Source: Candidatus Omnitrophota bacterium (GTDB lineage: Bacteria > Omnitrophota > Gorgyraeia > Zapsychrales > JAKLDJ01). From it: a stretch of 64,000 nt of DNA. Of the stretch, positions 1-51,179 are shown piece after piece. The stretch's first letter is position 1; every line of letters starts with the position of its first letter. The notes under the pieces are model-generated. The model was not told the origin of the DNA. It made no database searches and was given only the letters and a program-made list of their open reading frames with translations. The stretch is from the NCBI GenBank assembly GCA_022703585.1, contig JAKLDJ010000001.1:374891-438890 (forward strand), given 5' to 3'. Made by a program: the position numbers and the translations under genes.

Positions 1-3000
1 AGAATAAATGTGGCTTGAAACAAAGTGGTGAGTGAGCAAAGCGAGTCGAACCACAGCGGCAGGATTGACGGCAAGCAGGCGCGCTTTGGATGTTTTAACC
101 GCGGCCACCGATTGCGCAACCGGAGCCGCCATAACACTGCCGGGCCTGGCGCCTTCGAAACCATTCTGCAATACTTGTTCATTTTTTCCGACCTCATCCG
201 CGTAAGCGGTACCGGCGCCAAACAGGTTATTCAGCGCACCCAGAATCATATGAACCGGCATCATCAGAGGCGCGATCGGATTGAAGCCCTTGAACTGGTT
301 CGGAACCTGCGGTGCGACCGGTAATTTCGGCGCGGGAATAGTCGTTGCCGGCGGCAGGCTATTAACTGGGACTGTCCCCGCCTCAGCCCTGTTGGACCTC
401 GTCGAGGCCGGGCCCGATTTAGCTTGGGACCTGTCCCGTACCGAGCTTCGTACCATTGAAATCATTTTAGCCAGAGCCAAAGAGGCGATGATTAAAGGAA
501 GAATGCCCGGCATGGAGGCTTGCAGATTGCTATGGTCAGCCACGGCGGCAACAGTCTTATATTCCTGCATGCGAATCTTAAGGCCGGGTAATTCCTGCGT
601 CAAGGCAATGACTTCATTGAGGACTAAGCGGGTCGCATCGACATTGCTGGCGTACCAATGAGCGTTGGTGTTTTGCCCGCGGGAAATACAGGCGAGCATT
701 TTTTCATAAGAAATCTTGTCAGCGCTGCCGTTAAGACATTCTCTGATGGCATCGTTGACATCTGTGTCTTGCCCGATATGGTAAATACCAAACGCCAACC
801 GCCAGATATCCGCGTCACTCATCCTTGAACCAATCATCTTGGATATTCTGTCGTGGATATCCTTAAGAAGCATGATCGCTACCGTTGTATTGTCTTCGGC
901 GTTAAACGGGTTACGGCTTCCCTCGAGAGATCCGAAGAATTTCTCAAAATTCCTTCCCTTAACCTGGCTTACTCCCATATCCCAGCCTGTCGATTTGCCC
1001 AAGCCTTTTCTTTCAAGAGTGAAATATCTGTTTGAATTAATGGTAATGCGGCTCTGGTCGGGTGTTTCCATCATCCAGATAGCGATGATGCCCTCGGACG
1101 GAATACCGTGGGCGCGGGCAAGGTCGGCAAACCGAACAAAGGAAAGCGTGCGGCGGGCCGCAGCCTTATCCTGGGCGGTCAAGACATAATAGAGAGTCGG
1201 ATTTTTGCGTTCCCTGTCCGTCATGCCGCGCTTAAGAGCAATCCTGGCTTGCCCAAGCGCCTGTGCCGTATTGGCATCGGAACGGCGCATCAGCTGTGCG
1301 TAGAAAACCTCCAGCCTGTCAATGGTGCCGGCATAAATCAACGTCTCTAAAAGATCGCTGATCCGTTCAGGATGATTGGCCAGATTAGCTGTAAACCTTT
1401 CTTGATCTTTCGCAACCTCGGGCCTAAGATTCCACCCGGCTACCAATTCCTCCTTCTTGCCCCGAGGCAGAAGTGTCGATAAAACCGCAATCATCGTCGA
1501 GAATGTCCGGGTGTTATTGAGTGACCCGCTGAATGAATCCAGGCGATACGCGGCCTCGGTAAGCCGGGCTTTGAAATCTGCCATGGCCTGCTCGGCCTTT
1601 TCGGCTTCTTTCCGAATCCTACTGGCTTCTTCGATTTCAACAACCTTCTTGGCAATGCCATAAACTCCGGAGCCGGCGACCGCTAATCCGGCAGCTCCTT
1701 TGACCATGAGGCTTAAGAATTCCCTGCGGGTTTGCTCTCTTTGTCCTCTGCGTACCGCCATAGCGCGAATTTGGCGTGGCGCGGATTTGCGGCGGCTGTC
1801 GACAATAATCTTGGTGATACCGGCAACGGCTGCGGCTGCGCCGATAATGCCGGTGACTAAAGCGGTCTTTTCCACCGCGATCGGATCCATATACATCGCC
1901 CCGGCAGCAGCAACGACCGGCACGGCAACCAAAGGCCACGTCTTCTTTAATGATGAAATCTGAACGGGCTTGCGGTCACGGATGTGTTTATTAAAGAAGC
2001 GAACGATGTCATAGCTCATGAATCCGAGTGCCATGACAGTAAAGGCTACCGGCGCCAAGAGGCTGAAACCGTACACGGCCTCGCCTTCGGCGAGTTTCAT
2101 CGGACGGAGGATTTGTGTAAGAGAGCGAGGCGTCGGTAATTCCACCAAATCTTCCCTGGTTCTGTTGGCAACAGCCATAAACGTCGGGTCTTTTTTCTCA
2201 AAAAGTTCAACCAGGGCAAGATAAATCGGGAGTTCGAAAACGCTGCTTTCCATAAGGCGGAGATATTGTCTCTGGATAACAAAGGTCCTGCAGGCTTCGG
2301 CTGATATGGAAGAACCGTTTCTTACCCGTTCCCTTAATTCTCTGTGATAAGGCCTCAAGGTATCAAGAATCCCGTCAAAGCCGTCCGCCAAGCGCATAAC
2401 CGACGAGACCAGCCTGAAGGATTCTGCCGGTTTAGGGGCGTGCATACTTAAGATTACCTCCTGGGCCCCTTCGGGTAAGGCAATGCCCGATACGCGCAAA
2501 AGATCAATGCTGATCTGGCCATGTTCACGGGCGCGCTCGGTGTCTACTTTCGATAAGACCTGATCATTGCCATGGACGGGATCCCCTTCCTTCCAATAGC
2601 GGCGCCTGTCACTGAATACAGTAATAAGCTCTTCATCCAACTTGCCCAGATCGTGGCTAAGGCCGACAAAGTCTGCCAAAGCAATCTGGGCTGCGCCGGC
2701 ACAAAGTTGTTTATTCTTAAGAATCTCCCTGGCGAGAAGAGTTACGGCCATCTCGTGCTCAATAACCTGCAAGGTATAGTCAACCGAATGTAAGCTTGAA
2801 TAAAAACCTGTTTTGGAAACAGGAGCCCAGAATAAAGGCGACATATTAATAACCCGGCCTAAAGAAGTTCTTAAGAGAGTTCTGTTGGCATTTTCCCTGC
2901 CTCCCCACAGCTCGTTAAAGGCCATGATAAAGAACCGCGTTCTTTCCCGGTTGGGATTTCTAAATAAATCGAGAATAAACTTGGTATTGGTTATGAGAGC

Positions 3001-6000
3001 AGTCCTGGTATTTCCCTGCCGTACAGGGTAGGTAGCACCGATATGCCTGACGGCCCACAATACCCTTTCACGGGCGGCATTGAATTCCGACAGACTAAGC
3101 TGTGCCCAATGCCCGGAAGACTCTCCTGCCTCTTCGACCCGGGCTTGTGCCGCCAGGGTAAACAGCCCCATCAAGGCCGCGAAGGGCAGAGCAACGAGAT
3201 TAAAGGCGTTAAGATTGTCCGCGGCTTGGTTAAATAATTTCCGGCTTTCATCGGCGGTCAGTTCGCCGGATTTGATTCTTTCCTGCAAGAAATTCAAGGC
3301 AATAGTGATAATGCCGGACTGAAGAACAGCTTCTTTAATTCGTTCATCCCTCCCGGATTCCTTAAGTAATTCCGCCATCCCTGCCGAGCCCGCCACCTTG
3401 TTCCCGTAAATATCACACCAGGCTTTAGGCTCGCCAAAAAGCATTACCGGATCTCTGCCTTCATACCTTCCTTTATCTTGAGACACTCCGTATTCTTTAA
3501 CAGCTTTCACATAAATTTCTACAGCTTCCGCCACAGTCATATTCCGCTGACGCTCAACCAAAGCTTGAGAAACAGGATTTAAACTAAACGGTTCTTCATT
3601 AAAATCACTCATCATTGCCCTGTAGCGCTCTTCGTAACGGGCAATATTTATTTCGACATCGCTCATTCTCCTTGCTATCGCTATCCCTGCCAGCGGCATC
3701 GACGGCCCGGCATCGACGAGATTTTTGATTACCTGAAATACGGTCGCGCGGTTATAGTAGGTCTTTCCGGTTTGCAAATTCTCGGCAATCTTTTCCACGC
3801 GCCAGCCGCCGATTTTATGCGCTAACAGCTCAAGGGCTTCTCTGGCATCGTCAATCTTCCATTCGTAGCGCGGCAGGCCGACGCTTAAGGCAATCGAACC
3901 CCGGTCGCTGATCAGCTCTAACGCATCGTACAAGATCTCCACGGCCAAGTCAGGGTAGACATCATCAATGACATTTAAAGCAACAATACCCTTGATGGTA
4001 CCCGCACCGGCCAAGAGCGCCTTGGTGGCACCGGAAAGTTCGCCGAGCCGTTCGCTGATAAATTCGATGCCTTCAACCAGGCTTATGTACTGGGCCGGTA
4101 CCAATTCGGCGCTGTGGCTGCGTGCCATTGCCGGGTTATCGCAGTTCTCATAAATCGGGTCAATGCTGATAACCCTTGCCCCAAAAGCAGCTGCCGCAAT
4201 CATCGGCTCCATAAAGTACCTGCCGCCGACAAACACCACGGTATCGCCCTCGGCAATATTCATCGTGGCCATAAGTTTTACGGCATCCTTGGCAACATTC
4301 CTCTCCCAGCCAAGCTGGGCAATGACGGAATCAGCATCCTGCGCCATGCCGAATGCGAAAACAAACGGTACGAAGCTATTGAGAGATGAAGTTTCCCCTA
4401 ACTTGATACCGCTTAACGCTGGGGTGGCCGGTAAGCTGGCGAACAGCTTTTGTGTCATCGGCATTGAGAGCTTCCCAGGAGTTTTCTTTCCCATTGCGGG
4501 AGTAAACTTGCCCGTTGTGATTGAAGATAAGGAAGAGCCGAGTTTTGCCAGTAGCCTCTTCGCGGCCGGCGCCAAAGACGCAATCGTCTCCGCTAAATTC
4601 AACAACGTGATCGAATGTAATGTGTTTGTAGTCTGTCCTGTGACTGGTGACTGGTGTCTGGTGACTGGTGTCTGGTGATCTAATGTCCATAATGCACCTC
4701 CGTGGTCCGTCCCGACGATACGTCGGGACGAGATCTCGGCGAATTTGCTTTGCAAATTCGCCGGACTTTGTTTAGGTTTTTGGTTATAGTCATTCTGTGT
4801 AGGAATATTGTGAATTCCGTTGAAGGAAGAAACAGCGTTTAAGCGAGGCTTTACGCCGGATATAAAGGAAATAAATCCAGGAATCGTTCTGGTAGGATTG
4901 CTAACAGCAGTTGCGCTCTCGTTATCCACTCCGACACCCTTGTGCGAGGAGGGGCCGGCTGATGTCGAATTGCCGTGAATACCGGTTGAATTGCCCGCGG
5001 TACGATAGATAACCCTAACCCCTGTCCTTGCTTCTCCGAGAGTGAAAATCGGCTGATACAATACCGGCATGTTGGTGGCGGGCGCAAAGTGCATCGGCAA
5101 ACCCTTACCGCCGTTAGGTGTAGGCGCCACCGGCGGCACACCGTTCGCCGGCACATTCACCGGTATGGACTTAGGTTCGGCAGGCGCTGGAGCAGGGGTT
5201 TGCTCGGCCACAACTCCCCTATCCTCTCGAATTTTCCTCAGATCCAACGACGGCAACCCGGAATGCAGACCCTCTCGATTGTGAGGCTTGACACCCATTA
5301 TTTGAGTTAAGTTCTGGAGGGCCAGAGAGACACCCATAATACCGACCATCAGATTCTGGGATGAGACCGCCGCCAGGACAAAGAGGCCGCCGCCGACCAA
5401 GCCGATGGTCTGCGTTGTCTCAAGGCTGTTTTCTTTAAAGGCGTTGACGACCGAGGCAATGAATTGAGGGAACGTATAAATAGCAACATTGATAACGAAC
5501 GCCGACCCGAAAACCGGAGGAATCATTCCGCCGGCGCCTAAGAAAATCGCGGAAGGAACCGCAAACATCGCACCTGCAAATCCGATTCTCCATAACTTGG
5601 AACCTAAGCCGGAATAATCGGTCGGCTCCAAGAATGCCTGCAGCATACGGCCGCCGTCCATCGGATGAATAGGCAAGCCGTTAAAGAACCCAAGCATGAC
5701 CGTTAAGGTACCCAATTGGGTAAAGAAGTTGAGATTTCCCAATAATTCCCTAATCCCGCTGATATCTTTCATCGCGTTATTGATTTGTCCCAGGCTGGAG
5801 GCATGCACCAGATTTTTAGAAATATAATCCCATAACTGAAAGACACTTCCGTCGTGGGCCGCGGCCGGTAAATGATTCCCAACGATAGACAGGTTGCCTG
5901 TCGCTAAAACAGCCGCGAGATAGACGGCAGGAACAAAATAGGACATGACACGTAACGCCGAAGACTTCGCCGTCAAGCGGTGAGTGGCATACATGAGAGA

Positions 6001-9000
6001 ATAGAAACCGGCCACGCCGGCCACAGCCGGGAGCAGGCCAAAACCGCTCTGCATTAAACCTATCGTAAACCAGGTCGGGCCCATCAAGAACGTATCGCCG
6101 ATGGGGCCGACGCCGGCAACCCAAAACGCCTTAGCCGGAGTCAACTCGCTTAAGCCCTTGATGGTTGCCAAACCGCCCATGGCGGTAAATTCCATTTTCG
6201 AGGTAACCTTGCCGAAGCGGGCTGCCTCGATACTATGCCGGGGTTCGTGATTGATGAAAATCGCTATGACCGGAAGCATGGCGGCAGCGATTATCCCGGG
6301 AAGAGTAGCGCCGGCGCTAAAGAAGTACGCTGAACCCGCCAGAGGAACAATCATGGTCAAGCTGCCTCTGATCTGTGTCCTGTTGGACGAAATCCGTTTC
6401 GGCAACCTGAACAGGTCATGGGTTTTAAAGGCGCTTTCTCCATATAGGGTAAATTTATCAATATTGGCAATCATGCTGTCGCTCGCATATTGTTTCAAGA
6501 GGTGGCTGGCGACAGAAAGCGCGATACCCAATGACGCCGTGATAGCCATAACCATAACCGTAACAGCAGAAATTTCGGCCCCGGCTATGACAACAGAACT
6601 TACGCCAATCGATTTCGCGATTGAACCTAAGGCGGCTACGCCCGTACCGGTCTTCGCAAATCCCCACAAGCCCATACCTAAGAGGGCATTGCCCATCTGG
6701 GTGGCGCCGTGTGTCTTCGAGGTTACTCCCATCTTCTGTCCGAAGTAACCTAAAACGCCGTAGGTTAAATGCGCCATAAAACTGCCCTTCATAAGAAGGA
6801 AGACAGCGACGGATAAATTCGGGACCGCGAGATTCCATTTGGTAACCCTGACCGGTTTACCCGGGTTGTGGGCTCTGGAAGCCTGCCAGTCGGATAAGTT
6901 AAACCAGCTCTTAAGCTGTTCATGGTTTAAATGCATGCCTTTAAAGAATTTAATGCCGCTGACTTCGCCCATGTCCGATTTGATGGTTCTCTTTTCAACG
7001 GTGCCGTCTGTCTTTTCTTTGTTAATATCCAGAGCGGCTTTTAAGTCTAACCGTTTCGCGTTCGATGAGACCGTTCCTTGCATTCTTTGCGCAACATTTC
7101 TGTCTCTGACGAGCAGGCTGCCGGCATAAGAACCGTTGACGCTAAAGATAACATTGCCGCCGTTTTTAAACGCCGCGAAGAATTCTTCTTTGTTCGGGAA
7201 CCCATAGAAGTCGACCGTCCCATCTTCTTTTTCTTTGCCGAGCAATTGGCCGTGTTCGCTTAAAACAACGGCTGCGAGATAACCGTCTTGTTCGTCCGGC
7301 GCCCTTAAATACACCAGGCTGGGGCCTTGAGAAATGTGAGCTTGCTTGATGGTAGCGCTGGTGTGGAGATCTTCGATATATTCACGGTCTTCAGCTGTTT
7401 CGTCCGCAGCAAATTTTTCGTAGGCCGCCTGGGTGGTTATATCCATCTTTCCTTTAACCTTGTAACTTTCGGGAAGATAGCCTTTTGCCTTTAAGGCATT
7501 CTGGAATTTCTGCACCCGCTCCTTCAGTGAAAGTGAGAGTACATCTAATTCGACGCGGGATACGGTATACCCGGCCATGGAAGAATCAAATTGAGCCAGG
7601 ACCTGATTGATGTCACTTTCGTTAAATTCGCTCCAAAGAATTCTTCCGGCCTCGCTCCTGCCGTCTCTGACATTGTCAAAGTGGCGCTCGATCATAGCCC
7701 TGGTGAGTTTAAGCGGCGGCATGGCCCGTTCACTGTTTCTGGAAATCCCGCTTAAATTGGCAACCAGCGTCAACAGAGAGTCGGACACCTTCTTCTCTGC
7801 CAAGGCTTCTTTGACGGCAAACAACTCTTCATTGCTTAATACCCTCACCTTATCCGCCATCCATCTTAAGCTGCTGTGCTCCAAAAAGGCCTGCTGGGAT
7901 TCTATTGACCGTTCTTTGGCTTGGCGAAATGCGATGAATTCTTCCAGGTCACGGACAATATGGTTTCTGACAAACGGCACTATAACAGCCGGATTCTTCA
8001 GCTGTTTGATCATCTTGTTAGCCAAACCGTCTTCGTCGTCTTTCTCCAGGATCTTGCCAAGGCCCTCAAAGAATTGCCTTTCACCCTGGCGGACCATCGC
8101 ATCCGTTACCTCAGAGCGTGCCTGGGACATGTCGGCGATGGCTGAAATTCTGTCCAGGCCAAAAATTTCGGCCGCGTCTTTTAAGGTGTTTAACGCACGA
8201 GCCAAACCTCTGATTTGTTCGGAATAACTCTTCTTTTGGCCCAAAGACGGGGTCATGTCGACAAAGCGTTTTGTCTGCTCAACGACATGTCTTGCCTGCC
8301 GGGTTTTAAGAATTTGCGCTTTCTCCTCGTCGGTTAAATCCGGGCCGGCATAATCCACAACCATAGAACCGTCCTGGCTGGTTATCCTCTTTAAGCCTTC
8401 GCCCGGCTCAGGAACAGCACCCAGGTGCATTGAGGACGATTTTGTTACTGCTTCGTATTGCTGCCATCCCTCAATGCTTCTGCCTTCTTTGTCCTGCATA
8501 AAGGGTAATACCTGCCTGGAGAATTCACGAACGAGACTGATACCTTTTTGGACAAAGGAAGCATCGACAGCATCCATCTTAGGCTTGACCGCCTTGAGCA
8601 TGTCACGCGCCACGGCTCTATAATGTTTGACCGTCTCTTCTAATCCTTGGGTCCTCTCACCGACCATCAAAGACAGGATTCTTGATTTGGCGCCATCATT
8701 TAAGGTGTCATTGACCCCGGGAAGCGCGAGCATGATGTTGGCTTCGTCAATATGTTGATTCTTTAAAACATCAGCTTCAAGGCCGGCGGCGTTACGGGCA
8801 TATTGCGCGTTATCTGCTGAACCCAACCTCTTTGTTTGATCGACCAAGCTTTTTGCCCTTTGATTGAGACGGGTGAGGGCAACCGGTTCCTGGCCTTGCG
8901 CGTCTTTTTCGGCAAAGATATAAATGCCTTGCTGGCCAAAGGCAGAAGTTTTTCCGCTAAAGCGCTTATCGCCTTTTTCGCAAGAAACAACGTAGACGCC

Positions 9001-12000
9001 TAAAGTCTGGCTCTTGGAAACTCCTTCTAAGAATAAGGCTATGTCGGGCCTGTTTAAAGCCATGGCCGCGCGCTGGGCGGACTCAATTAAGTCAGAGGAA
9101 GCTTCCTCTCTTTCCAGGGATCCCTTGTGGACGGCGCGAAGGATGGCTTTTTCTTCTTTGGTTGCCTTGAACCGGCCGGCAAGATCCGCGTCCGGTACTC
9201 CGATCCATATCTTGCGCAGTCTCTGCAAGAATTCATCTTGGCCGTACTGTGCCGGATCCTTGAGGGCATTCCAGAGCCGCTCCAAGCCGTCTTTCTTCTG
9301 AAGCATCTTTCCTAATCTTGTTCTTTCGGCGGGAGTAAATTCTTCTTCGATATCTTCCAGTTCCCTTGAGCTCGCCAAGTCGGTGATACTTTTCCACTTT
9401 CTCTCTTTACGTTTATTTTCTTTCTCGATATCAACCGGTATATTGCCGTCACGCAGGTTCTGGGCGGTGATAGGGCCTAAGTCGAATTTCTCATCCCTCT
9501 TGTCGGCGCGCTGCTGTAATTCCTTAAAGGCCTGGTTGGCTTTTTCATCATAGTCAAATCCGAAGAGATACGGTTTTAAGGCTTTCTCGGCTCTGGCGCG
9601 CGCCTGCCTCTCAACTTCCAATTGGTAACTTTCTTTTGACTGGCCTTTTTCCTGCACTAAGTCTTTCTTGACTTCTTTCTTAAATTTCTTAACAATCTTC
9701 CAGAGCGGGCTGTTTTTATCCGCGCTATAATTAAAGAGCGCTATCGTTATTCTTCCGTCGCTATTTCCTTTTTTGCGTAATCCCCTGGCCTGTTTCGCCA
9801 TCCAGTATTCCAAAGTCCCGCGGTAAATACCTAAGTCTGACCTGTCTTTAAGCCAGCCGCCCTTGACGTGATGAACAGCCGATAACGTCAACCGCCACAA
9901 GCCTCTGGCGGCCAAGATGCCTTCTTCCGGGCCTTTCTTGTTTTCGTAGTCGTTAGACATAAGCGTGAAGAATTTACGCAACGTCCAATTGCCTAACACC
10001 TTTTCTTGCTTAGCGGCAGGAACACTGTTTTCCAGCAAATCATACGCCTTGCCGGCTCTTTCAAAATCCTGATTAGACAACATCCCCGCTAAGGCCATAC
10101 CGTTTAAGGTGTTTTCTTTGCGGCCTTTATCGCCGAGAATAGCTTTGCCCATTTCGGCAAGTTGTTTGAAGGTGAGGTCAATCTTTTCCGCCCTTTGCGG
10201 CATTTGGTTCTTGGTTAAATTCCACAAGAGATATCCGTGGAAAGGATGGGTTTTCAATGAAGAGAACATCTTCTTGAGCGGATTCTTATGCGCGCGTAAC
10301 TCCGTAAGCCACGGTGACATGGTGTTGAAAGATTTGTTAAGCGGCGTGTAAATATAGGCCAGGGTTTTTATAACCTTGTTTCTGTTGTAGCGGGCATCGA
10401 TAACGCTGGATGAAATTGATTCCGAGTGCGCGATGGGCAAGAGGACCAAAGACGCCAGGAAACCGCCAAAATTAGGATGCTTTACGAGGAATTTAACCGC
10501 ATTACTGACAGCGGCTTTCCTAACCAGGGCAACAGTCCTATGCTCCGTATCTTCTCTTTTTTGTTTCTCGTCCTCAACATTCGTACGAAGCAATTTAGCG
10601 GCGTTAACCACGGCCGCGGAATGTTCATCGCCTTCAGGTTTTGCAACTTGATAGCGGGCGATATAACTATTCAAAGCCTCAAGGACAGCCTCTCTGTCTC
10701 TCCAGCTTCTGCCGTCGCTCTTTAAATAAATATTTAATAAATCCTCATTCCATTGGCTGTCTAAGGCGCTGCCTAAACCGGCCTCGTCGGCAACATTGCC
10801 GATAACTTCGGCCCTATGTTCACGGATGACGGTATCGATAGCGCTGTTTAAGGCAACCAGGTCCGACTGGCCTTGGGCGCTGGTTCTATTCTCGGCCTTA
10901 TAGGCCTTGAAGGTATCGCTTAATTTGCGGCCCTTCTCCGAAAGTTCAATCACGCGCCCGAAGGCATCGGTGCCGACAAATCCGTACTTGGCCGCCAGGA
11001 CAAAATTCTTAACGGTGTCGATAAATTCGCTTTGTTCGCGGGATGGTTTTTTGGAATTGTAATTTCTAAAGAGTCCGTTTTTATTTGCGTCAAACAGGGT
11101 ATTAACAAAAGCGGCGATATCGGAATCCTGCGGAAGGGTAGAAAGAACATCGCGAATAGCCTGCGGCGCTTCAATAAGGCTGGAGGCGACTTCGCTGACC
11201 TCGTCAATAGCGGCTGCCGGTGCGCCCCGGATTTGGCCCTGGCGAGCGACATCTTCGGCGGCCTGATTTTTGGTTTCGCTGGGTAAATTCGCGAGAGCGC
11301 CGAATCTTTGGTTGTAGGTATGATTTATCTGTTCCATCTCCATGTCGCTGGGGGTATGGGAAGCCCTGACGTCGGTAATCCGGCTGGTATCTTTTACGCC
11401 TGCCATTTGGCGGGCAGCCCTTAAGGAGGCTTCGAAATCTTCAATGATGCCGCGGTTTTTGGCGAACTGACGGAAGAGATCCTGCTCAACTTCGCTAAGT
11501 TTTTCAAGCTCGGATTTTAATTGAGAGCTGCCGGCAGGGAATTGTTTCTTAAGTTCTTCCCTTTGGATGTCCACCCGCACTAAAAGCCCTCTCTCCGCAG
11601 GCCCTATTCTGGCTTCATCGATATAGGCCATCATGTCTTCAGCCGGCGCACGGAAATCGTCGAATATCTTTTTGGTGCGGTCACCGGCGCGGCCGATCAA
11701 CTGAACATCGGCAACCGCCGTATGCTTGCTGCCGATCCTGACAATTCTTGCCGCATAGGCTTTTGCAGCATCTGTGGCAAGCGCCAGGAGGTTTGTACCG
11801 TCGTTTAACTTATTGACGACAACAATAAGATGCTTGCGAGAGTCTTTGCTGCTGTCTGCGTATTCGCTCCTAATAACTTTCCCGAGTTCATCCATTTTCT
11901 TGGTTTTGGCATCGCCGATAGAACCTTCGACGCCCTCGATACGGACATCGTCCCCGGCAAATGCCCCCTTTCTCTTTAATTCTGTCAATCGTGCGACTGC

Positions 12001-15000
12001 CTTATAAACATCGTCACCGCTTTGAGTCACTAAAACCGTGACCCGCACCGGCCATTCCTCAAAAACTTCATTAGGCTTATTGACTTTCACCGATTTGGAT
12101 TCTCTAAGCGCCTGCGTAATGCCCTGGATAGATGCTTCCAGGATATTGCCGGCGGAAACCCGTATATATTTAGCCATTCTTAATTTGCTATCCATATCGA
12201 CCCTGTCTAACTGCAGGTAATTTGCATTGGTAAAGCCTAAGACCTCCAACGGGCCGCGCACCGGAGTAGCCGTCATCAGCACTAACGGGGTCGGCGCATC
12301 TTTACCGACCAAGAATCTCTTGATGGAGAAGATATCGGTCATATCGCCTCTCAAGCTGAAATAATGTTTCATGGCTTCGATATTACCCGCTCCCGACTTT
12401 AAAGCCGTCAGGGCGGCTTTGACCGCGCTGCCGTGAATATGGGTGGGCCTCGAATCACCTTCCTGGGCAAGCCGATAATTGAATTTGACCAAATCTTTTT
12501 CGTTTAAGATAAATACCTTGTCGCTGCCGGTCGTGCCGCCTTCGAAACGGACAAGCACATCGCTGTCACTGTTGCTGGTGAAATACCGAATACCTTTTTC
12601 TGTTTCCATGCGATGGGAACTGCCGCTTAAAGCTTCCCTGTAACCGGTTTCGGCATCCATAATATAGGGAACCTTTTCATTCTTTTCTATAACATGGACA
12701 ATGATACCGGTAACCGTTTCACCGTTAGTGTCGGGGAATTCGAATGTCCGGTAGATGTCCCTGGTTTCTTTATCCAGCAGGCTCATGATGGCGACATCAA
12801 CCGCCTCTTCAAATTCTTCGCGGATCCATTTTTCTTCTTTCAAATTCAATCCCGGGACCAGTTTCTGCAGATGAGCCATGATTTCCTTTTTAACCTGTTC
12901 ATTAACAGCTTCTCTGGGGATCGTCGTGCCGTTGGGGTGAGTCGCCTGGCCCCAAACAATAGGTGACGGGCGGTGAGTTGAATCAAGATCAGAGCGTCTG
13001 AGCTCAACCTCTTTTATAACCTCGCGGAATAATCTCATCAAATTCCAGCCGCTCTTAAAGTTGGCATCGGTCAATTGCCGTTCAGGGTCAATGCGAATAG
13101 AATCAATAAGGCCGGGTTCGGTAACGGCAATGTGGGCATCGTCCCAGATAATCCTGTTCTTTCCGTCGTTAACCGAAGGCTTGAATGCGCTCAGATAATC
13201 CTTTGAACCTTTTATTTTTTCGGGGCTCTGGACTGCGGCAGCTGCTACGGCTTGTGTTTCGTTCGTATCGGCACTCACGGCCGCAGCTTCTTCGTTGTGG
13301 CCTTTGGCGATATTAAGGAAGGTCTGCTGAGGCATGACCACGATATCAAAGTCTTGGGTTAAATCAGCCATCTTAACTTCTCTGAGTAACGCCTTGTAGC
13401 TTCCGGCTTGCTTTGCCGTTTCCTCTGCTTCTTTCAAGGACATTTCGGCAACGCCGTCGGCGTAAGTCCAGACAGAGAAATCGTCGAGCACGATACCGAC
13501 CCTAACCGCCGGTTTTCCGTCCGCGAGTTTCACAGCGCTGACGGTTCTTAAGTAGGCGTCATAGACAGCGGCACGCGGCATGTTGGTGATGTCGGGAGCG
13601 AGGATAAGCGATTTGCTCTTGAAAGGCCGGTTTTCCAGGGCTTCCATTAACTGGAATGAAGCGCGGCCGGCTGTGGAAACAAAAGTTTTACCTCTACCGG
13701 TAGGCCACTCAATAACCACTCCGCCAAAGTTCGCGAAGACCATGCCGGTCGCTTCGATTTGTTTTGACTGAAGCTCCAGAGGCCTTTCGGAATCTTCCAT
13801 ATTGGCCCTGGCGTCACGCATGAATTTCACTAACGTTTCTTGCGTGTCATCGCTGACGATTTTTCCGATAATCGCTGATATGGATTTTTTCTCGGATTCG
13901 GGAATATTATTGTTTGTTAAGAATTGCGCCAAAGCCTGTTTCGGAGTTACGTCAGAAAATGCCGCGTAAGCAACCGCCTCACCCAAACATCTTAAAGCGT
14001 ACTGTTCTTTGTAGGTAACAAGCTGCTGCGCGGCCTCATGGATAACAGATTGGTAACCAAACGGCCGAACGGAATCTCTTTCTGCGTCCGTGCGAGTGGC
14101 TGTAAGCGCAACATCATTGCCGCGAGTATACTTCGAGGCCCGGACATCAACAGCCGGGGAGGGGATCCGACCGCGAGCCGAGCCTCTGTTACCAAATAAA
14201 CCTTTCCATAAATCTTTATCAAACAACATGCCCGGGAAAGAGTAGAGCGTGGTAGCGGAGACCTGGACACTGGCGTTGGAGGAGGGGTTTCCAACGTAGG
14301 CCAGGTCTCCATTGTTAAAAAGATTATCAGAGGCCCGGACATCAACAACCGGGGAGGCCCGTCTCGACTCGGCTGATTGTGTAAACGAGCCGAGGCGGAG
14401 GTTCCGATTGGACGCCCGGCCTTTAGAAATAATGACGGATAAATCTTGGGAATTGATGTTATTTTCAGGTAAATTGGAAGGCGTTACAGGAGTTACCAGA
14501 GACAAAGAAGCCCTGCGGGCGATTTCGGCAGAGTTTGTGTGTGCGGATTCAACCGCGAAACTATTTTCTTCTGCTTTGAAATTCCTGGTCTCTTCTACTG
14601 CATTACGAACATCTTCAGCTGACCGTGGCTTTGATGTTGCCGGCTCGGTAGCGGGCTCTTCGTTGACTTCCGTGGCTTTAGCGGTATCCCTTAATAAGAC
14701 ATCGCAGACTACTAAGGCATTACCAGCCTTTGGAAGGCCGGTGACAGGTAATGTCCTACTTAAGGAACCATTTGCCGCTAGAATGTCAAAAGAGCGAACT
14801 ACTAAGCTGTCTTCGCCATCGTTTCCGATGACCGGTCTGGCAGAACCGGAGATCTCTACTGCTTGTCCTTCTATTACCAGGCGCAGACCTCTCGCACCTT
14901 GAACTTTATCGGCTGACTGTCTACGGCTGTTTTTCTGTAAACCATTACCAGCTAAGACATTACCTATAAAGTCTGCTTCTGAGCTTTCGCTCCGTCTTGC

Positions 15001-18000
15001 TAATGCTTTGGCTATATTTGCTACCATAGCTGTGAAGGTGGAAGCACTACCAAACACCCGCACAACTAAGTCCATGGCTTTTTGTCTCGCGCTCTTATTC
15101 AACCCCGTCTGCGACACTGCGAGAGTGCCGGACGGCTTCGTGGAGTTGTCATGGATGCCGCTGGTTAATTTGCTACCGTCTTTTACTTTCAATAGAATTT
15201 CATTCTTAAATCCTTGTTGATTATTAAAGGCAATCTGCGGTGCTTTTACAATATCGGCTGAAGATGCCCCAATCCCCTGTTGATAAGCAACCACGCTCAC
15301 CGGAGCCTTGCTGCTGCCGGAACTTGAACCGTCATTCCCTGTGGGTTGCGGTGATACGGGCATGGAAACAGGCCCGGGAGCTGTCGGAGCAGGCGCTTCT
15401 TTTCTCTTCTGGCTAGGCGTATTATAAGGACTGTCGATAGGACTTTGAGGGAAATCAAACCTGGACTGACGCATTCCATTATCAGTATCGGCAAAAGCGA
15501 GCAGAGGAACATTATCAATGCCTAACCGAGGCTTCGGCATGGCTGTATTTACCCAGCGCGGTTTTGTCCCATTTAAGCTTGCTATCGGCGGCACGGCGAG
15601 AGCAGGCGGCATTGGCGCAGTCATTATTGAAGGCGGCAATATTTGAGTTTCCGGTAAAGCGTTCGGCGCCTGAGGCACAGCGACTGAACCGGATTTTAAT
15701 TCCGGCAGAGGAGGCATAGCCGATCCGGCCCTGATATCAGACAAGGGCTCCGGCTGCGATGGCTGGGCCACAGCAGAAAGATTGCTTACAGTCGGAGCCC
15801 CAATGGTCACTTGGGACGATTGGGTTAGCGGTATTTCTTCTTTAATACGATTGGCCTTTAAGGAAATGTCGCCTTGTCCATTGGCCGGCGTATCTGTACC
15901 GAAAGGAAGGTCCATCCCCAGTTTTGCCGACTCCCGTATTAATTCTGCTAAATACTTTTCTTGCGCTCGCGTAACTTCGACGTAGAACGGCGGGACGGCT
16001 CTTTGGCTGTTATTCAAGGCTGTTGAATCTTGAGATTTCCATGCAGCCTCAAATTCTTGAAGAGTCGTTGCCCAATATTTATGGATGGAATCCACATAAG
16101 GTTCATTCAGCTGGACCTGAAGTTCGGGTTGAATAAACTCCGGCCAGCTCCGGTCTGCTTGCATATCGACGATGCGCGACTGCCATCCCTTTCGCCATTC
16201 AGCGCTTAAATCAGCGGGTGCGGCCACTTTCTTTGACACAATGATCGGAACACGGTGAGGATAATTCTCAACGGCTTTCTTAAGATTATGAACGGCGTCT
16301 TCACCATAAGCCAAATAATCCATGTCAATAACCACGACGCGGGAATTCGGACCGATAGTCCGGCCGTAATTGCGAGCCACATTAACAACATCAAGATCAA
16401 TGACCCCGCGCCTGGCCATCTCAGCTCTCAAGGAAATAATATCATTCTGGAAGTCTTCAATCGCCTTATCATAATTGCGATTAACCGCCGCGCGTTCTTT
16501 TTCGGTCGTTGATTTAGCCAGAGCTGCTTCCCGCTCCTGGTTCATGCGATCTCTGAAATTCGCGAATGTCTCCACTTTTTGCTGAACAAAGACGAACGGA
16601 TATTGATGAATCTTTCTGGGCACATGGCCGCCGCGTATCATCAGTGAGACATCCTCAAGGACAATCGCTCCGGTTAGCTCAGGGCCTAGCCGGTTCTTGA
16701 TAATATCGTATCCTCTGGCAAGTTCGGGTGCTAAAATTTTCTTGCTGTAGAAGTTCAAATCCTCGTGGGGAATTTTGACAACAATATCATAATCGGGGTC
16801 AGCCAAATAGGAACTATTCCCGGGAACGGCACGGTCAATCGCGAATGCCGCAAGCGCCCCACCTTCATCCAAGTAGGTAAAGACGGGCCCCTGCTTGGTA
16901 ACCTGGTATCCTTCTTTCACTGTTTCAATCTTATACCGCACAACATCTACGGCAGCTTTCTCTAAGCCCTGGCTAATAACGGCATGGTCGAGTCCGACTT
17001 TATCTAACATCGGTTGAAAATCTTCCAGCTGGCCAAAGCGGTTTTGCCGTGCCACAATGAGACCAATCAAATCGCTGGGCCGAATATCAATACGCGTTCC
17101 GTTAATAGAAAGGTGCAGCCAAGAACTCTGCCCGTCGCCGGTTTCCTTGTTCGCCGGCAGGGCAACGTCGCCTCTGCTGTTATCAATCGTCGGGTTGGCT
17201 TCGAGAGCCTGGCGCTTGCTCGTCATAGCGATCCTGCTTGACAGGTTATCAGAGGCCTCGGTGAATGCCGGCACAGGCATTCTTTGCGCCAATATTCCCG
17301 ATAACATCCATCGCACCCTATCGACAAGAGAATCATTGTTGCCTGACGGAAGGGCCACGTACTTTTCTGCACGGGTATAATTTATTTCTGCCAGCGGCCT
17401 GCCGGTGTTTGTATTCACAGTCATCCTGCTGGAGGTGGGTTTGTTGGGAGCAGTCACCGGGCGCTGGAAGATTCTGGCTAAGGCATCGGCCATATTCTTT
17501 CCGCCATACCAGCGTTGCGCGCCCGTCGAGCAGCTATCCAGCATGACTTTCCCGTCCGCAGTAAGAACACGGCTTAACCCGGCGCGCTGTAATTTCTTAA
17601 GGACAACCGGCATCGTCAGCACGTCCGTCTCTTTGGGCCCGAACTGAATAGACCCCCTTGTCCCGTGGCCGGCGATAACAACCAGAGAGGCAGGCTGGTA
17701 TCTTGCCGGATCCTCTAAATTCGTGGCGTCTTTTAAGGCAGAAACCATCTCATCCGGAGTAGAAGCCTCATAATACAAAACACGGTAATGCTTTGTCAGC
17801 GCTGTGGCATTGGTGGGATTCAAAAGGGCATTGTTGTGATCTGATTTTGGATAGACCACAACCGCCAACGGACGCGTGTCATCCACCTTGCCGAGGCGAT
17901 GCAACAGCCTGTTTTTTACCAATTCTTGGCCGGCGTTGCCCCGAAGAGCCACTGTTCGAATAATGTTAAGATCCGGTACGCGATAGTAATTGGTCACCAT

Positions 18001-21000
18001 CTTGGGGAAGCTTTGTTCGCTGACGGGTTTTCCGGCAAGTTCGAAAATCGGAAGGGCTATTTTCTCGCGCAGATCCCTTACCATTTTCTTATCCGTCCGG
18101 CGTCCGTCTTCTTTGGCTAAATTCTCAAATTGAGCTATTAAATTTGAAATTTCTTTTTGTGCAGCCCTTATCCTGGCTGCCCGCGGCGAAGGTTCTGCCA
18201 TCGAGGGCGCTTTCAGAATAAACTGCCAGGCAGCCCTGGGAGAATAATGCCTGCCATGGCTTGCCAACTTTTCGATAACCGGCAGGGAAAGATTTTCCAT
18301 CCTAAAGGCCGGCATGTCAAAGGCGGCAAGAATTCCTGCGGCATCCATATTTCCCTTCAAGACTTCTTGCTCTAAAACAGATTTGGTTTCGGCGGCATAA
18401 TCAGGTACGGTAGCCGCTATCCAGGCAAGGGCTTTGGATACTCCCGGTTTATTGACATGATTCTTTAATACGGCAGTAGCTATCCGGGCAAGGGCCTGCG
18501 CCACTCCCGGCTTATCAAGCTCATTGGTTATTTGGACAAGGGCCCAGGGCGCTGCCGGTTGATCGATATGGCTCTTTAATACGGAATAAAGCTGTTTGGT
18601 AAACTGGGGTGTCATATCCCGGGCGGTCATAACAAAAGCCTGGGGCTTGCCCTTTTTCTTAGGTAACGCTCCGACGAGAGCTTCTGCGGCCTCCATGTTC
18701 CCTTTGACAGCTTCTTGTTTCAAAATAGATTTGGTTTCATCGGCATAATCAGGCACGACAGTGGCCATCCAGGCAAGAGCCTGAAGAACTCCCGGCCAGT
18801 CAATATTTTTCTTCAGCATAGAATAAACTTGTTTAGTAAAATACGGCGGCATATCCGTAATTGTCCTGGCAAGGGCACCGGCGGCATGCTTGTTAATAGC
18901 TATCTGACTCTCTAGCGCGGAAATAATCCGGTCGGTAATCTTCGGATTGCCACGAACCATAGCCACGAGGGCATCCGGTGTATAAATATTGTGCGGATTA
19001 TCTCTCGCGATCTCATCAAGCGTCGTAATGGCTTGCTCTGTGAACTCCGGATTCACTTTTGAGAAATCAACTAATGCCCGAGAAGTACGATACCCCGCGT
19101 TATTTTTGGCGCTCTCAATCAAGGCCGTTGCTACTTGAGGAGTTAAGCCGGGATTTGTCAACGATATCGTCCAAAGTTCCTGCATGGTCTGGGTAAAATC
19201 GGCATCGTAACTATTATCGTCACCGCTATCGGACAACATACCCTGAAGCTCTCGAATTCTATCATCGGTAACGGGCCTCGCCTGAGCCGGCTGACCGGGC
19301 ATTGGTAACGGTCGGATGCTCTTTATATTTTCAAGAGGGAAACCATAAGCTAAAGCATTATACCTGGTGTCCAGGCTAATTTTATCCCTGCCTACGACGG
19401 CCGTTTTACCATCAATAGATACTATCGTAGTTCCGGGTTCTAGCCGTGCGAGTTGTTCAGACGTAAGAAGAAGTACATCTCTACGGATGCGGGCTCCGCC
19501 GTTTAACAGAGATTCAATATTAACTGCCAAGTGCTGTTGGGGTTCTGCCTGGGCCAGCAGGCTGGTACCGGCGACTTTCGTTGTCGACGGTATCGGGCTG
19601 CGGTCGGCTTTCAGGGCAACGTCGCGATTATTATCAGCGGTCAGGTTGGTGTCGGAAACTTCCTGAAGCTTTAATTCTGCCATCGGCGCGGTGGCCATTG
19701 CCTGCACGCTGACAGGCTTTGCCATCTCGGACGTACGAACCATTTTAGAACCGGCTGCCGCTTCCATCACTTTGACGGCCGGTGCTGCGGCGGCCGACTC
19801 TATCGGGCCGGAACCAAGAAGCATTCCGCTTTGGGGTGTGTTTCTCCTGGAAAGTACTGCACGAGCTATGCGTGCGACGGCAGGCCTCGACATCACCGCA
19901 GAACTCGGGGCAAAACCAGCTCTTGTCCACCATGTCCAGTGATTCAAAAGTAAGTCGCCATTGTTCCGAATGGCCATGAACTGAGCGTTGGCTATGCGCC
20001 AAATCTCATCTTCGCTAAGTCCAGCCTTCTTAAGTTGAGGCTCTAAAGCATGTTTCACTCGGTCAGGATGAAGGGCTTTTAAATAATCCCGGACCCGTGT
20101 CTTTACTTGCGCTTGAGACAAGGCAATGGCCGGCCCTCGCGGGTCATAAATTCCGAAATAGTCGAGGATATACGGATGGAACTTCTTGTGGGTAAATGCA
20201 AACACGTTCGACAACCCATGGTCTTTGATGGCTGAAGACAATAAACCGGTACCCGTGCTCTTACGACGCAACTCCGATACTTTTATTTCCCCTTTCTTCA
20301 ATAAAAGAGCATACAGGACCCCGCTAACAAACTTTCGGTCACGCAGATATGTTTTAAGAATATCCGGCGGAACCTTTAATGCAGCCTCTAATTCTTTGAG
20401 CGTTGGGGTATCGGGATGGTCCACCAGATACGAGGTCAAGGCGCTATTAAGCGGTTGGCCTGTCCGTTTCTTGAAATCCGCCTCTGTACGAACTTGTTTG
20501 AGGAAAAGTCTGCGGTTAGCGTCCTCATTGAACACTTCGAAATACTTGCTGATTGTTGACTGACTAACGCCTTGGTTCTTCGCTATCTGCGTCTGGATGC
20601 CATCACCTTGCTTAATCCATTGCGCCATCTTATAATGGCCGGGATAATCAAACGACGGTTTATGCAACTGCCCACGGGCGCGGTCAAATTCTGCCTGACG
20701 CTGCCGCGGATCGCCGTCGATATACCGCTTTATATATCGTCTGGCTGCGGTTTCGCTAACGCCTCGGGCCTTGGCAATTTCTGCGGTACTCGCACGAGTT
20801 GAAGCAATCAGTCCGCTCATGATGCTATCGCCGGGATAACGGTCACCCTTCAAGCCAACTTCTTGTTGTCGCGCCTTTGATGCCGTAGCAACCAGAGCGG
20901 CGTATTTTCCGGTAGGATCACCGCCATTGTTGCGCAAATTTCTAACCCAGTCTACGGCCGTCGAGTAACTTACATCCGCCTCAGCGGCAAGAACGCGCAA

Positions 21001-24000
21001 ATCTCCATCGACCCTGTCTAAGGACGCACGCAGCCATTCATCGCCGCCATATTTCTTGTTTGCCGGTTCTCGCTGATTGGTGCGGTCAGCCTTTAAGGCA
21101 ATGTCGCCTGCTAACGCCGCGCTCGCCGCCAAATCACCGCCAGGCAACCGGCTTTCGCCCTTTAATAATCCACCACTTTCTAATAAACCGTCGCCGGCTA
21201 AGGATGGGACACTGTCAGCCAAAGGTGCTTCTTGTTCCAAGGCATAAAGATCGCGGCGGGTTTGGTCGGCCCTTAGAGCTTGTTCCTTCATCTGGCCCGG
21301 AACATCCTGGCCAAGGTTGCCTCTAGCCATCGGCGGCAATAACAATCCGGGAACAAAAGGAACGCTGCCGGGGAAGGATTGCTGCATCGGCGCCGGTAAG
21401 GCACCCCCGAGATTAGATGTTTCTGCCGGAATATTGGCCTGGCCTATTGCCGGAGCCGAGGGCAGGGCAAAAGTTTCTACATCAACTCTGGCTACTTCCG
21501 CGATACGCCGGGCATTTTCATCGGACGGCAATAAGTCACCTTTCCCGAAGAGAACAACGCCGCCGGAGAGAATAGTTTTAACGTCTTCACCTTTTAGTTC
21601 TTCCAGTTTGACATTACCGCTATCATCTAAAGAAACCCGCGAGAAGATATTGATCTCTCGTTGGATCGGACCTTGTTCTGTCTGGACATCGGTAAAACCT
21701 TTTTTTGCAATAAAGACATTGCGGTCATATCTTTTCTGGATACGTTCGCGGGCCGCCTGTCTTAAATCCGTATCGCGGTCGACGGGAACAAGTTGAACCG
21801 CCGGTAAGCTCGCGAGAATTGTCCGCATATCGCGCTCTATGCGAACATTTTCGGAATGGGTTCTTTTCGTATTCGCACGGCTGATGGCTTCGTGCAAGAT
21901 GGCACTGGCCATTCTTGCCTCGTACGATGCCTGGGCGAGGAGGGGTTGGCCTACCGCCTCAAAATGGGTTTTGGCATTGGCGGCTGTACGTGTGATATAG
22001 ATGTTGTCCAGATTCTTCCCTGCGCCGCCCGCATGGGCTCCCATGAGCGTATCTTCCGCTTCCATCTGATACATAAAGCGGGCCAATTCGACAGGAGTCA
22101 ACTTCTCCTGACGGTCTTGAGCTGAAAGGCTTTGCATGGCCTGCTCGCTGACAAGATTGCGGCGTAAAAGCGCCTCGGTTCTCTCAAGGATAGCGTCCTG
22201 GTCCAGCTCAGAGAGGAAGAAGATGTGCCCTCCCTTATTAGCCGGGTCAATCTGCATCTGGATGATCCTGGCTGCTTCAAGCGCTTCCTGCCTTAATTGT
22301 ACGGACTCCTGGTCATCAAGCCCTTCTAAGGCGTCAGCAACTCTGTAAGCCATTTCCAGGTCCGCTTTGGCAGCCTGCAATTCTTCAAAACCGGTTTGTC
22401 CTGCCTTAATATCCGTAGTCGCCTTTACTGAGCGGCCGGTGGTGTTGACCTCCTGGCGAATAATGCCGTTCTCGACAATCCTGCTGAAGATTTCGTCAAA
22501 TCTCCGGCTGGGGATTTCCATGGCTTTCGCAAAAGCTTCCCGGCCTACGGTAACGGAAACAATTTCTTGGCTGGCACTGCCGCCGGGCAAACCTAATCCC
22601 TTTAACAAATCGCCCCGGCCTTCGATAGTGTATTGAACAGGATCACCGACTTCTTTGGTGGCATCCGTAATCTGATAAGTTTGCTCAACGATTTTTATAT
22701 CGTCGCTAAATCCTGTAAGAAAAGGCGCGGTAAACTGATGCGTGGCCGAATCAACCGGCACCAGGGTTCCGGCATAATGAACAGCCTTGACTTTGGCCGG
22801 ATCGGCATTGCCAACATCAGCAATACTGACGACATAGCCATGCTCAGTTATTCTATCGCCTGTTTTTACGCCCAAGAGATCCTGCTCTTGTATGCCCTGA
22901 GGAAGTTCGCCGATTTCGCGGTGCAACAGACTGTGAGTTCCTGCTGTCGTATCGACGCTGTACACTTCCCGGACAGGAATCGATATTTGCGAATCATTTT
23001 CATGCGTAACGATTGCCACGCTGCCCTGCAATGAAAACCGGCTGTTGTCCTTTATGGCAGCCGTGACAAATCCGCCTTCTTGCAAAGGAACCGCGATAGC
23101 CACGGGGTTTTTATCGTTATCTTTATTATAAATAAATCCGAATTGGGGAATGAGCCCTAAGGGAACAGATCCGTTACTAGGAACGAACATCTGATTGGGT
23201 CCGAGTTGGATACCGGCACCGGGATTCTGAAGTTCGGAAGAAGGTAGCGTGCCCGGGATGACGACAAAAAACGGATTTTCACTTCTATAACTTTTTATTT
23301 CAGGGCCATTGGCGCCGTTGATTGCGGTTGTTACGATAACCTTCGGCGGCGCTCGGGAGGCTACGAGTCCCTGATCTGCGGCCACCACGGGTTTAACAAC
23401 CTCCGCAGTAACAACGCGCTCGACGAGCATCTGGCCTTCCCGGAAACCGGGAGAATACGTCGGCACCATATCTTTAGATAATCTGGCATTAACCGCCTGT
23501 TCAAATTCTTTCGGGGTTTGAGCTTCCTGGACAGATATTCCTTTAGATAAATCTCCGGACTCAGCAGTTAAGGTAATGCGGATATCCTGCTCGCCTCGCA
23601 TAATGCTTTCAACTTCTGCCCGAGTCCTGGGACTTAATTCCCTAAGTTGTTCCGGGTGCATGCGGAAATGTTCTCGGATAACTCTATTGGCCGAATTAAC
23701 GGTTTCCTCGATCGCTGATTCTATAGTTTTCTTGGCTTCTTTAGCCGGCTCAGCAAGACTGCTATGGCGAAGGGCGTGATTCGATTGCGCAATCTTATCT
23801 CTAATCTGTTGAAGTGCGCCCCGTTCCGCATCCGTTGCCGCATCGGCTTCCCATCTTTCTTGACGCATAATTCCTTGTCTTTGGCCGTACTCGAATGTGG
23901 CTTGAGCGGTTGCAGTCCGATCGAAGCTGCGCTGAACCGGGCCCTCCATGTGCTCAATATACTTTGCGGGATCCGAGAAATTAACAACATCCAACGCGAT

Positions 24001-44720: not shown

Positions 44721-44739
44721 AGCGAAACAGTAGGGGTCA

Positions 44740-45597: not shown

Positions 45598-45642
45598 AGG
45601 ATTTATTCTCTAACCAAAATTACCTTTAACAAAAATACCCCA

Positions 45643-46047
45643 TTAGTTACATTGTGGATTTGCACAAGGGGTCACGCAATACTCGTTACAATGCTCCTCG
45701 CAGCAGTCGGCATTATGTCCGCACGCCGTGTTGGGGTTAGGGCTATGACTGCCGCAAGGATTCCAATTATTATGATCCATGCAATTATGTGCGCATTGAT
45801 CGGAATAGTTCGTATGGCATTGGGGGACATACCACCTTCCCAGGTCTTCGCTCCAGATGCATTCAACCGTTTTTTTAGGGTCGTATTGCATCCCGAAACC
45901 GAAGGAATCGGCTGACGCCTTCCAGCGCCCGGCAAAACCGCGCAGGACATACTGCCGTCCGGCGACAAAAGCCGCGATCAGAATAACGATAAGCATCGTG
46001 TATTCGATCATGGAAGCGGCTCTTTTATTACCTTTACGCATCGTCAT
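45643..46047 (-). CDS. Flp-like pilin paralog with a Cys/His-rich C-terminal extension (12 Cys in the last roughly 60 aa).
   Basis: N-terminus MTMRKGNKRAASMIEYTMLIVILIAAFVAGRQYVLRGFAGRWKASADSFG parallels the xxxxEY plus hydrophobic helix plus RGIQGRWK pattern of the flp array genes. C-terminus ...CHTNYSDQCAHNCMDHNNWNPCGSHSPNPNTACGHNADCCEEHCNEYCVTPCANPQCN. The start overlaps the stop of the upstream TadG-like gene (TAATG), indicating translational coupling. Confidence 0.55.
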   Translation of the reverse strand: MTMRKGNKRAASMIEYTMLIVILIAAFVAGRQYVLRGFAGRWKASADSFGFGMQYDPKKTVECIWSEDLGRWYVPQCHTNYSDQCAHNCMDHNNWNPCGSHSPNPNTACGHNADCCEEHCNEYCVTPCANPQCN

Positions 46048-49298: not shown

Positions 49299-49361
49299 TC
49301 TTTCTCCTTGAATCTTGTTACGTCAAATTTGCCCTAACCCTTTATTTTAAAAACCTTAAAC

Positions 49362-49625: not shown

Positions 49626-49684
49626 TTTAGCTGTCAGCTTTCAGCTGTCAGCTTTCAGCTGCTGAGAGCTGATAGCTGGTGGCT

Positions 49685-51115: not shown

Positions 51116-51179
51116 TTTTCAATTCACCATAGATTATCTTTATCGCCCCGAAAAACGAACCCGTCATTACAAAAGAAAA

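Follow-up and report, generated by a model that had tools for sequence, protein, structure and literature searches.

A probable, very divergent site-2-protease-like (M50) module inside a giant protein of a Candidatus Omnitrophota bacterium

The DNA considered here, 64,000 nucleotides of a Candidatus Omnitrophota bacterium (contig JAKLDJ010000001.1, positions 374,891 to 438,890 of the forward strand), is referred to in its full length as the window. Its minus strand carries a giant open reading frame (ORF): a stop-free frame of 14,199 codons extends from window position 42597 down to position 1, with the first, and likely, ATG at 42558. The ORF leaves the window at its start, so the C-terminus lies beyond the window and the visible length is a lower bound. 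Residues are numbered from the first codon after the upstream stop, residue n starting at window position 42597-3(n-1). Residues ~12077-12390 of the encoded protein probably form a functional, very divergent intramembrane metalloprotease module of peptidase family M50 (site-2-protease fold), and we put the probability of this statement as a whole at about 0.6. A first-pass annotation of the window had described an M50 domain embedded in a giant protein; the length of the stop-free frame bears out this setting, and phmmer searches, invariant alignment columns, a reverse profile and fold matches support the domain. The ORF and the parts of the module are given below, with transmembrane helices (TM) named by their equivalents in mjS2P, a site-2 protease (S2P) of Methanocaldococcus jannaschii (MJ0392, structure 3B4R), and with model confidence expressed as the predicted local distance difference test score (pLDDT).

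1..42558, minus strand: giant ORF, partial, at least 14,186 residues (six-frame scan and start-codon list)
5308..6831, minus strand: cluster of hydrophobic helices holding the M50 module, residues 11923-12430 (peaks in a 19-residue Kyte-Doolittle window, charge map)
5491..6369, minus strand: M50 core, residues 12077-12369
6220..6294, minus strand: helix equivalent to mjS2P TM2, with HEPRH at 6235-6249, residues 12102-12126 (invariant columns H68, E69, H72)
6166..6189, minus strand: FTAMGGLA, the conserved GG of the beta-hairpin after the HExxH helix (invariant G92, near-invariant G93 and A95)
6043..6126, minus strand: helix equivalent to TM3, with the GP motif at 6103-6108, residues 12158-12185 (invariant G115, P116; model helix 105-134)
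5716..6048, minus strand: insertion of ~100 residues, residues 12184-12294 (a gap in all 17 aligned M50 proteins; low pLDDT)
5641..5727, minus strand: helix equivalent to TM4, with NGLPIHPMDGGR at 5647-5682, residues 12291-12319 (invariant N257, P260, P263, D265, G266, G267, R268)
5446..5586, minus strand: two helices equivalent to TM5 and TM6 of the S2P fold, residues 12338-12384

The two motifs that define the module are read in one frame of the minus strand. The first lies in ...MLPVIAIFINHEPRHSIEAARFGKV..., where HEPRH occupies residues 12117-12121; the second lies in ...GFFNGLPIHPMDGGRML..., where NGLPIHPMDGGR occupies residues 12306-12317, directly preceded by a hydrophobic stretch (12291-12305). 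HExxH is found once in the 14,199 residues, as HEPRH, against an expectation of 0.15 from composition. The pattern N..P..P.DGG is likewise found once, against an expectation of 0.0005, and starts 189 residues past HEPRH. The second motif had been placed about 200 residues downstream of the first, and the two quoted peptides indeed begin 196 residues apart. The hydrophobic helices described beside the motifs correspond to the Kyte-Doolittle peaks of residues 11923-12430, essentially the interval first noted, and both motifs stand at the ends of hydrophobic helices, in agreement with the proposal that they sit in membrane helices. HEPRH closes the strongest hydrophobic segment of the region (Kyte-Doolittle value 2.3). 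The first-pass annotation went too far on one point, the continuation of HExxH as A-R-x-x-G 'exactly as in RseP': Ala (+4), Phe (+7) and Gly (+8) are in register, but the residues read S-I-E-A-A-R-F-G against the usual A-R-x-F-G of M50, and the displacement of Arg by one position makes the word 'exactly' an overstatement.

The homology of the module to peptidase M50 is distant, genuine and, in our judgement, secure. PF02163 (peptidase M50) is the sole Pfam family matched in residues 10001-14199, with an E-value of 1.2e-5 over profile positions 3-196 of 221. The match spans both motifs, as the search suggested in the first-pass annotation would have it, and must cross the insertion of ~100 residues; its score of 25.3 bits stays 1.9 bits short of the gathering threshold of 27.2. 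A phmmer search of the sequences of the PDB matches a single protein, mjS2P (3B4R, E 6e-4), with the HExxH and DGG blocks in order: HEPRH is aligned on HELGH and NGLPIHPMDGGR on the region of D148 (19 bits). Against 1.84 billion representative proteins, residues 11900-12460 yield 175 phmmer matches at E<=1e-3, the best at 2.2e-9 and none below 1e-10. The 150 matches listed are all proteins of 178-448 amino acids, each with at least two matched stretches around the HExxH or the DGG block; the best identity is 38-41% over ~80 residues. Eight of nine sampled matches, the five best included, are ordinary M50 proteins of 200-450 amino acids that score 68-95 bits with PF02163, some of them with a CBS domain. 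The ninth, P0020, aligns to another part of the query, a membrane module upstream of the core. In an alignment with 17 M50 proteins the giant protein keeps 13 of 13 invariant columns (H, E, H, G, GP, N, P, P and DGGR). A reverse profile built from 149 stand-alone M50 proteins finds a single site in the 14,199 residues, residues 12077-12369, with 83 bits, a score somewhat inflated by the choice of these sequences for their similarity to the query.

The arrangement of the conserved elements is that of a six-helix S2P core: HExxH at the predicted inner end of its helix, a beta-hairpin with the GG pair, the GP helix, and a later helix whose predicted inner end bears NxxPxxPxDGGR. Judged by the alignment, all four residues that bind zinc and activate water in mjS2P, SpoIVFB and RseP (two His, Glu, Asp) are present, with His12117, Glu12118 and His12121 as putative zinc ligands and catalytic base and Asp12314 as the putative third zinc ligand. 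An AlphaFold2 model built on an alignment of 18 sequences displays the S2P core fold, with the motif helices packed together and a beta-hairpin following the HExxH helix. The pLDDT is 86-95 over the HExxH helix (model helix 50-78), the beta-hairpin and the GP helix, 78-87 over the DGG helix, and low over the insertion. The hairpin is made of strands 82-89 and 92-98, and block means of pLDDT are 88-95 for residues 81-120; its equivalent in S2Ps is the membrane-re-entrant beta-loop. Foldseek searches of the PDB with the model return 3B4R and SpoIVFB at the top, both with probability 1.00, and also match RseP. Two hydrophobic helices that the aligned relatives lack (5983-6039 and 5881-5949) make up the insertion, together with a loop of ~45 residues. 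By alignment the insertion is specific to this lineage and stands at the position of the PDZ domain of RseP. The membrane region is wider than the core: three or four more helices precede it (residues 11923-12034), and at least one follows.

The distribution of Lys and Arg, mapped together with hydropathy, places clusters of basic residues in the predicted cytoplasmic loops, and on this basis a topology consistent with the canonical S2P arrangement can be proposed. TM1 would cross from inside to outside after a basic cytoplasmic loop (12035-12078, eight K/R). The HExxH helix would return from outside to inside with HEPRH at its inner end, followed by a basic cytoplasmic stretch that includes the beta-hairpin (RFGKVTSK...K...K). 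The GP helix would then run outwards, the first inserted helix inwards, and, past a short basic loop (HRLTAKSSALR), the second inserted helix outwards again; an outer loop would lead to the DGG helix, running from outside to inside with its Asp at the inner end. Since the number of inserted helices is even (two), the catalytic helices would remain co-directional, and the predicted active site would lie near the cytoplasmic face, as in known S2Ps. The spacing of the motifs, incompatible values of which had been named as grounds for rejecting the domain, is unusual: 197 residues separate the first His from the Asp, against 85-120 (median 103) in 149 relatives. The excess of about 100 residues is due to the insertion of two extra helices, which would keep the topology. 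In RseP-type enzymes the corresponding position holds a tandem of PDZ domains in the periplasm.

The helix cluster also stands out in base composition. The third-position GC of 5308-6831 is 0.61, above that of all bins of 508 codons of the giant ORF (mean 0.51, standard deviation 0.05, maximum 0.58). Either the amino acid composition or a different history of the segment could account for the difference.

Further domains of the giant protein lie at its N-terminal end.

42367..42423, minus strand: N-terminal membrane anchor of the giant protein, residues 59-77 (hydropathy; kept in Omnitrophota relatives)
41704..42084, minus strand: C39 cysteine peptidase domain (Pfam PF03412, 32.3 bits against a cut-off of 22; aligned with 13 homologues)

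Lys and Arg on the N side of the anchor and acidic Asp on its C side suggest an N-in/C-out orientation. The putative catalytic residues of the C39 domain, a Cys (LNCG, 42055-42084) and a His (EHFV, 41803-41823), are conserved among the 13 homologues. The charge distribution points to an extracytoplasmic domain, whereas ABC exporters have their C39 domains in the cytoplasm. The 13 homologues, all of them partial C39-domain proteins, were found with the first 1,200 residues and share 33-54% identity; seven are labelled Candidatus Omnitrophota/Omnitrophica and one Elusimicrobia. Apart from the M50 core, relatives of the giant protein can be recognised for the anchor and C39 part only (window 41704-42423), and the likeness to the loci of two relatives stops at about residue 470. 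Residues 11000-13499 (window 2101-9600) have no homologue at E<=1e-3 in a search of 5.8 billion protein clusters. By these searches the part of the giant protein around the module is an orphan, the M50 core itself excepted. Published reports describe giant ORFs as poorly conserved (PMC10066038; bioRxiv 10.64898/2026.06.07.730766), and the fast divergence of most of this protein agrees with them. C39, M50 and weak HTH and DUF4347 hits are the sole Pfam matches of the visible ORF; no SecA-DEAD (PF07517), glycosyltransferase, HEAT or dockerin domain, as are typical of the giant classes described so far, is found by Pfam in the visible 14,199 residues. The weak matches, all below threshold, are to HTH_29/23/28 at residues 7264-7353 (21-22 bits; window 20539-20808, minus strand) and to DUF4347 at residues 8299-8389 (19 bits; window 17431-17703, minus strand).

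Several observations weigh against a functional M50 peptidase. The two inner residues of HExxH are Pro and Arg in the giant protein, while in 149 of 149 relatives a hydrophobic residue (L, F, Y, M and others) is followed by G, A, S or C, a rule that is empirical among these relatives and is no formal definition. Among the M50 ORFs at another 160 loci, taken from GTDB genomes and JGI metagenomes, a single one breaks the rule (HELMH), and none has Pro or Arg. Pro and Arg in these positions may distort or occlude the active-site helix. The insertion of ~100 residues splits the two halves of the core, and the Pfam score falls below the gathering threshold. The fold match is a consistency check and no independent proof, since the AlphaFold2 model was guided by an alignment of M50 sequences, and the topology is a reading of hydropathy and charge alone, by the positive-inside rule. 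No orthologue was found that would show the catalytic residues to be conserved over time. Regulatory domains of the usual kinds are also missing: residues 10001-14199 contain no Pfam match to a PDZ domain at E<=1 and no Pfam match to the CBS domain that several of the nearest stand-alone relatives have. NCBIfam TIGR00054, the RseP equivalog, scores 13.3 bits against a cut-off of 147.55.

These features also give weight to the view that the module is a pseudoprotease or scaffold, that is, a descendant of M50 without cleavage, which would serve as a multi-helix anchor, bind zinc or helices, or offer other transmembrane segments of the giant protein a place to dock. Besides the Pro and Arg of HEPRH, the insertion in the core, the Pfam score and the missing PDZ and CBS domains, the very fast evolution of most of the giant protein favours such a role, for which inactive rhomboids, the iRhoms, offer a parallel. 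Pseudoenzymes, on the other hand, usually lose their catalytic residues first, and here the four catalytic and metal-binding residues and the whole of NxxPxxPxDGGR are intact amid surroundings that have diverged past recognition. Soluble zincins, moreover, accept varied residues inside HExxH, as seen in the HELTH of thermolysin and in the variants of peptide deformylase. The catalytic residues are kept in the midst of 2,500 residues for which no homologue can be detected, which speaks for continued selection on the metal site. We regard loss of activity as a serious but rather unlikely account of the module, and incline slightly towards an active protease.

Two other accounts fare worse. The motifs might be chance occurrences in a hydrophobic stretch, or an ordinary M50 gene might have been fused to the giant ORF by misassembly or a frameshift error; the Pfam score under the curated cut-off and the failure to retrieve an independent assembly of this part of the gene are compatible with such an artefact. 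The motifs, with expectations of 0.15 and 0.0005 per protein, occur once each and in the right order, however, and chance would have to produce an E-value of 2.2e-9 among 1.84 billion proteins together with 13 of 13 invariant columns. The frame is open without a stop for 12,076 codons ahead of the core and 1,830 behind it, and there is no close stand-alone-like relative to act as the source of a splice, the best identity being the 38-41% over ~80 residues noted above. We considered an artefact and rejected it. It is also conceivable, if highly improbable, that the module is an offensive protease, delivered into or acting on the membrane of a prey or host and cutting its membrane proteins. Omnitrophota of this type are regarded as epibiotic predators, and a Tad pilus operon immediately precedes the gene. 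In related Omnitrophota, giant proteins have been proposed to act in prey attachment and attack (PMC10066038; bioRxiv 10.1101/2023.11.21.568195). Against such a role, the same polypeptide has further hydrophobic helices on both sides of the module, the charge distribution fits an ordinary insertion in the inner membrane of the producer, and nothing in the window suggests a device for translocating a multi-helix domain. No S2P is known to act in a foreign membrane.

An active, zinc-binding module would hydrolyse peptide bonds of transmembrane helices in the producer's own inner membrane. Like RseP, SpoIVFB and mjS2P, it would receive its substrate helices from the side, at an active site near the cytoplasmic face. 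The most plausible substrates would be helices of the giant protein itself, such as the N-in/C-out anchor and other clusters, or partner proteins. A first cut by another protease, for example the N-terminal C39 domain, could precede the M50 cut, and pieces of the giant protein would be set free or removed. Most known substrates of S2Ps are N-in/C-out helices that an earlier cut has shortened. The anchor of the giant protein has this predicted orientation and is followed by a protease domain, which makes processing in cis the most attractive idea; we infer only tentatively that the module cuts the giant protein in cis, and consider it doubtful. The more specific scheme of a built-in two-step cascade, in which an extracytoplasmic C39 domain (or another protease) would cut first and the M50 module would then cut the remaining helices of the same polypeptide, appears less probable still. 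Under such a cascade a product of more than 14,000 residues would be split into secreted, membrane and cytoplasmic pieces, a bacterial 'polyprotein' with a built-in site-2 protease, and HEPRH and the inserted pair of helices would have arisen as adaptations to substrates in cis.

A second cluster of hydrophobic helices without a family match, residues 13131-14053 (window 439-3207, minus strand), lies downstream of the M50 module. These helices and those at residues ~3438-3466 and ~5499-5519 are candidate cis substrates or anchors.

The core fold of the module is closest to the CBS-bearing group of mjS2P and SpoIVFB (Bacillus subtilis, 8VJL), with an identity of 14-19% to the two. These enzymes are stand-alone proteins of 220-290 amino acids with a C-terminal CBS domain, whereas the module is found 12,000 residues down the chain of a giant protein and lacks a CBS match. 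It further differs from them in having HEPRH in place of an HELGH-type motif, and ~100 additional residues with two helices between the equivalents of TM3 and TM4. RseP and RasP of group I (7W6Z, 9J83) carry PDZ domains, where the insertion of the module offers two membrane helices and a short loop and no soluble filter domain.

The giant protein as a whole resembles the known giants of Omnitrophota ('Archaeovorin'-type, C39-group). Giants with an N-terminal C39 or S8 domain, many helices and type II or Tad neighbours have been described, and the C39 and S8 domains have been speculated to cut them into pieces (bioRxiv 10.1101/2023.11.21.568195; bioRxiv 10.64898/2026.06.07.730766). A giant ORF and a Tad locus were described in the predatory Velamenicoccus archaeovorus (PMC10066038), and the context of the present gene makes its organism, too, very probably a member of the Omnitrophota. 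The present protein shares with these giants an N-terminal anchor with C39, many transmembrane helices, a small number of recognisable domains, very rapid divergence, and type II/Tad secretion genes in the neighbourhood. With at least 14,186 residues the protein exceeds the 10,000-amino-acid criterion of the 2026 preprint (bioRxiv 10.64898/2026.06.07.730766); the criterion of West-Roberts is a gene of more than 90 kb, or 30,000 amino acids. A SecA-DEAD domain is reported in 'most' giants by West-Roberts (bioRxiv 10.1101/2023.11.21.568195), and within the window this giant has no match to PF07517, although such a domain could lie past the window's edge. The texts of both preprints and one supplementary file of the 2026 preprint make no mention of M50, site-2 proteases or intramembrane proteolysis, and a full-text literature search for a site-2 protease in a giant protein returned no paper. 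To judge from these sources, the module adds a domain not reported before to a known class of mosaic giant proteins, and it represents an unusual member of an established protease family.

Other M50 modules embedded in giant proteins were not encountered in the collections searched. A word-indexed homologue search with the 561-residue region gave no match, and neither did near-exact 8-mer locus scans of GTDB genomes and JGI metagenomes, which missed the source organism too and exclude only near-identical copies in those collections. Motif scans (FN[LG][LI]P[IV][FHY]PM and a GP-helix pattern) led to 160 loci, with no second giant-embedded M50 and no HEPRH among them; the M50 genes of these loci all lie in ordinary stop-free frames of at most 631 amino acids.

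The module bears on the question of whether the giants of Omnitrophota are single multi-megadalton molecules or are cut into pieces. An intramembrane metalloprotease among the giant's own helices is a concrete and testable candidate for processing at the membrane. An M50 core with Pro and Arg inside HExxH, and with two helices at the position of the RseP PDZ domain, constitutes a natural experiment on the tolerance of the S2P active site; if the module is inactive, it provides an example of an S2P-derived pseudoprotease.

Two neighbouring features border the module and the giant gene, respectively.

6445..6939, minus strand: separate membrane module just upstream of the M50 core, residues 11887-12051 (BLASTP E 6e-13 to P0020)
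43722..62896, minus strand (same strand as the giant gene): Tad/Flp pilus operon directly upstream of the giant gene (Pfam, gene calls)

P0020 (Logan SRR5574341) is a stand-alone membrane protein of 238 amino acids and of unknown function, placed by tblastn at 6166-6882 of locus L168. It shares with the upstream module the motifs (L/S)(S/T)DWQA..HNP.KP and H(L/I)LK(Q/E)YAS..M(I/L)A..DK.TL, which are located at the ends. The idea of an ancestral two-gene cassette, a P0020-like gene next to an M50 gene, was dropped, the neighbour of P0020 not being an M50 gene.

The Tad operon includes genes for RcpC, a secretin-TonB_C fusion, a TadZ-TadA fusion, DUF192, Flp pilins, TadB and TadC, and several unknown genes. 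The order of TadB, TadC and then the C39 giant gene is kept in relatives. The two fusions are unusual: in one, the secretin has TonB_C as its C-terminal domain (60353-62014), and in the other a ParA/TadZ-like ATPase is joined to a TadA (T2SSE) ATPase (58192-60351). A protein identical to the TadZ-TadA fusion is encoded on 17 contigs from several sources (the four shown are from JGI, Logan, ENA+NCBI and ENA), some of them longer than 1 Mb. Three large genes of the operon, of 978, 476 and 1,083 amino acids, have no Pfam match. Rfam gives no match anywhere in the window, including the low-GC spacer that separates the operon from the giant gene. In window positions 42001-44000, which contain the end of TadC and the 1.16-kb spacer before the ATG at 42558, the GC content is 0.42, against about 0.50 elsewhere, and the spacer is possibly a promoter or regulatory region of the giant gene.

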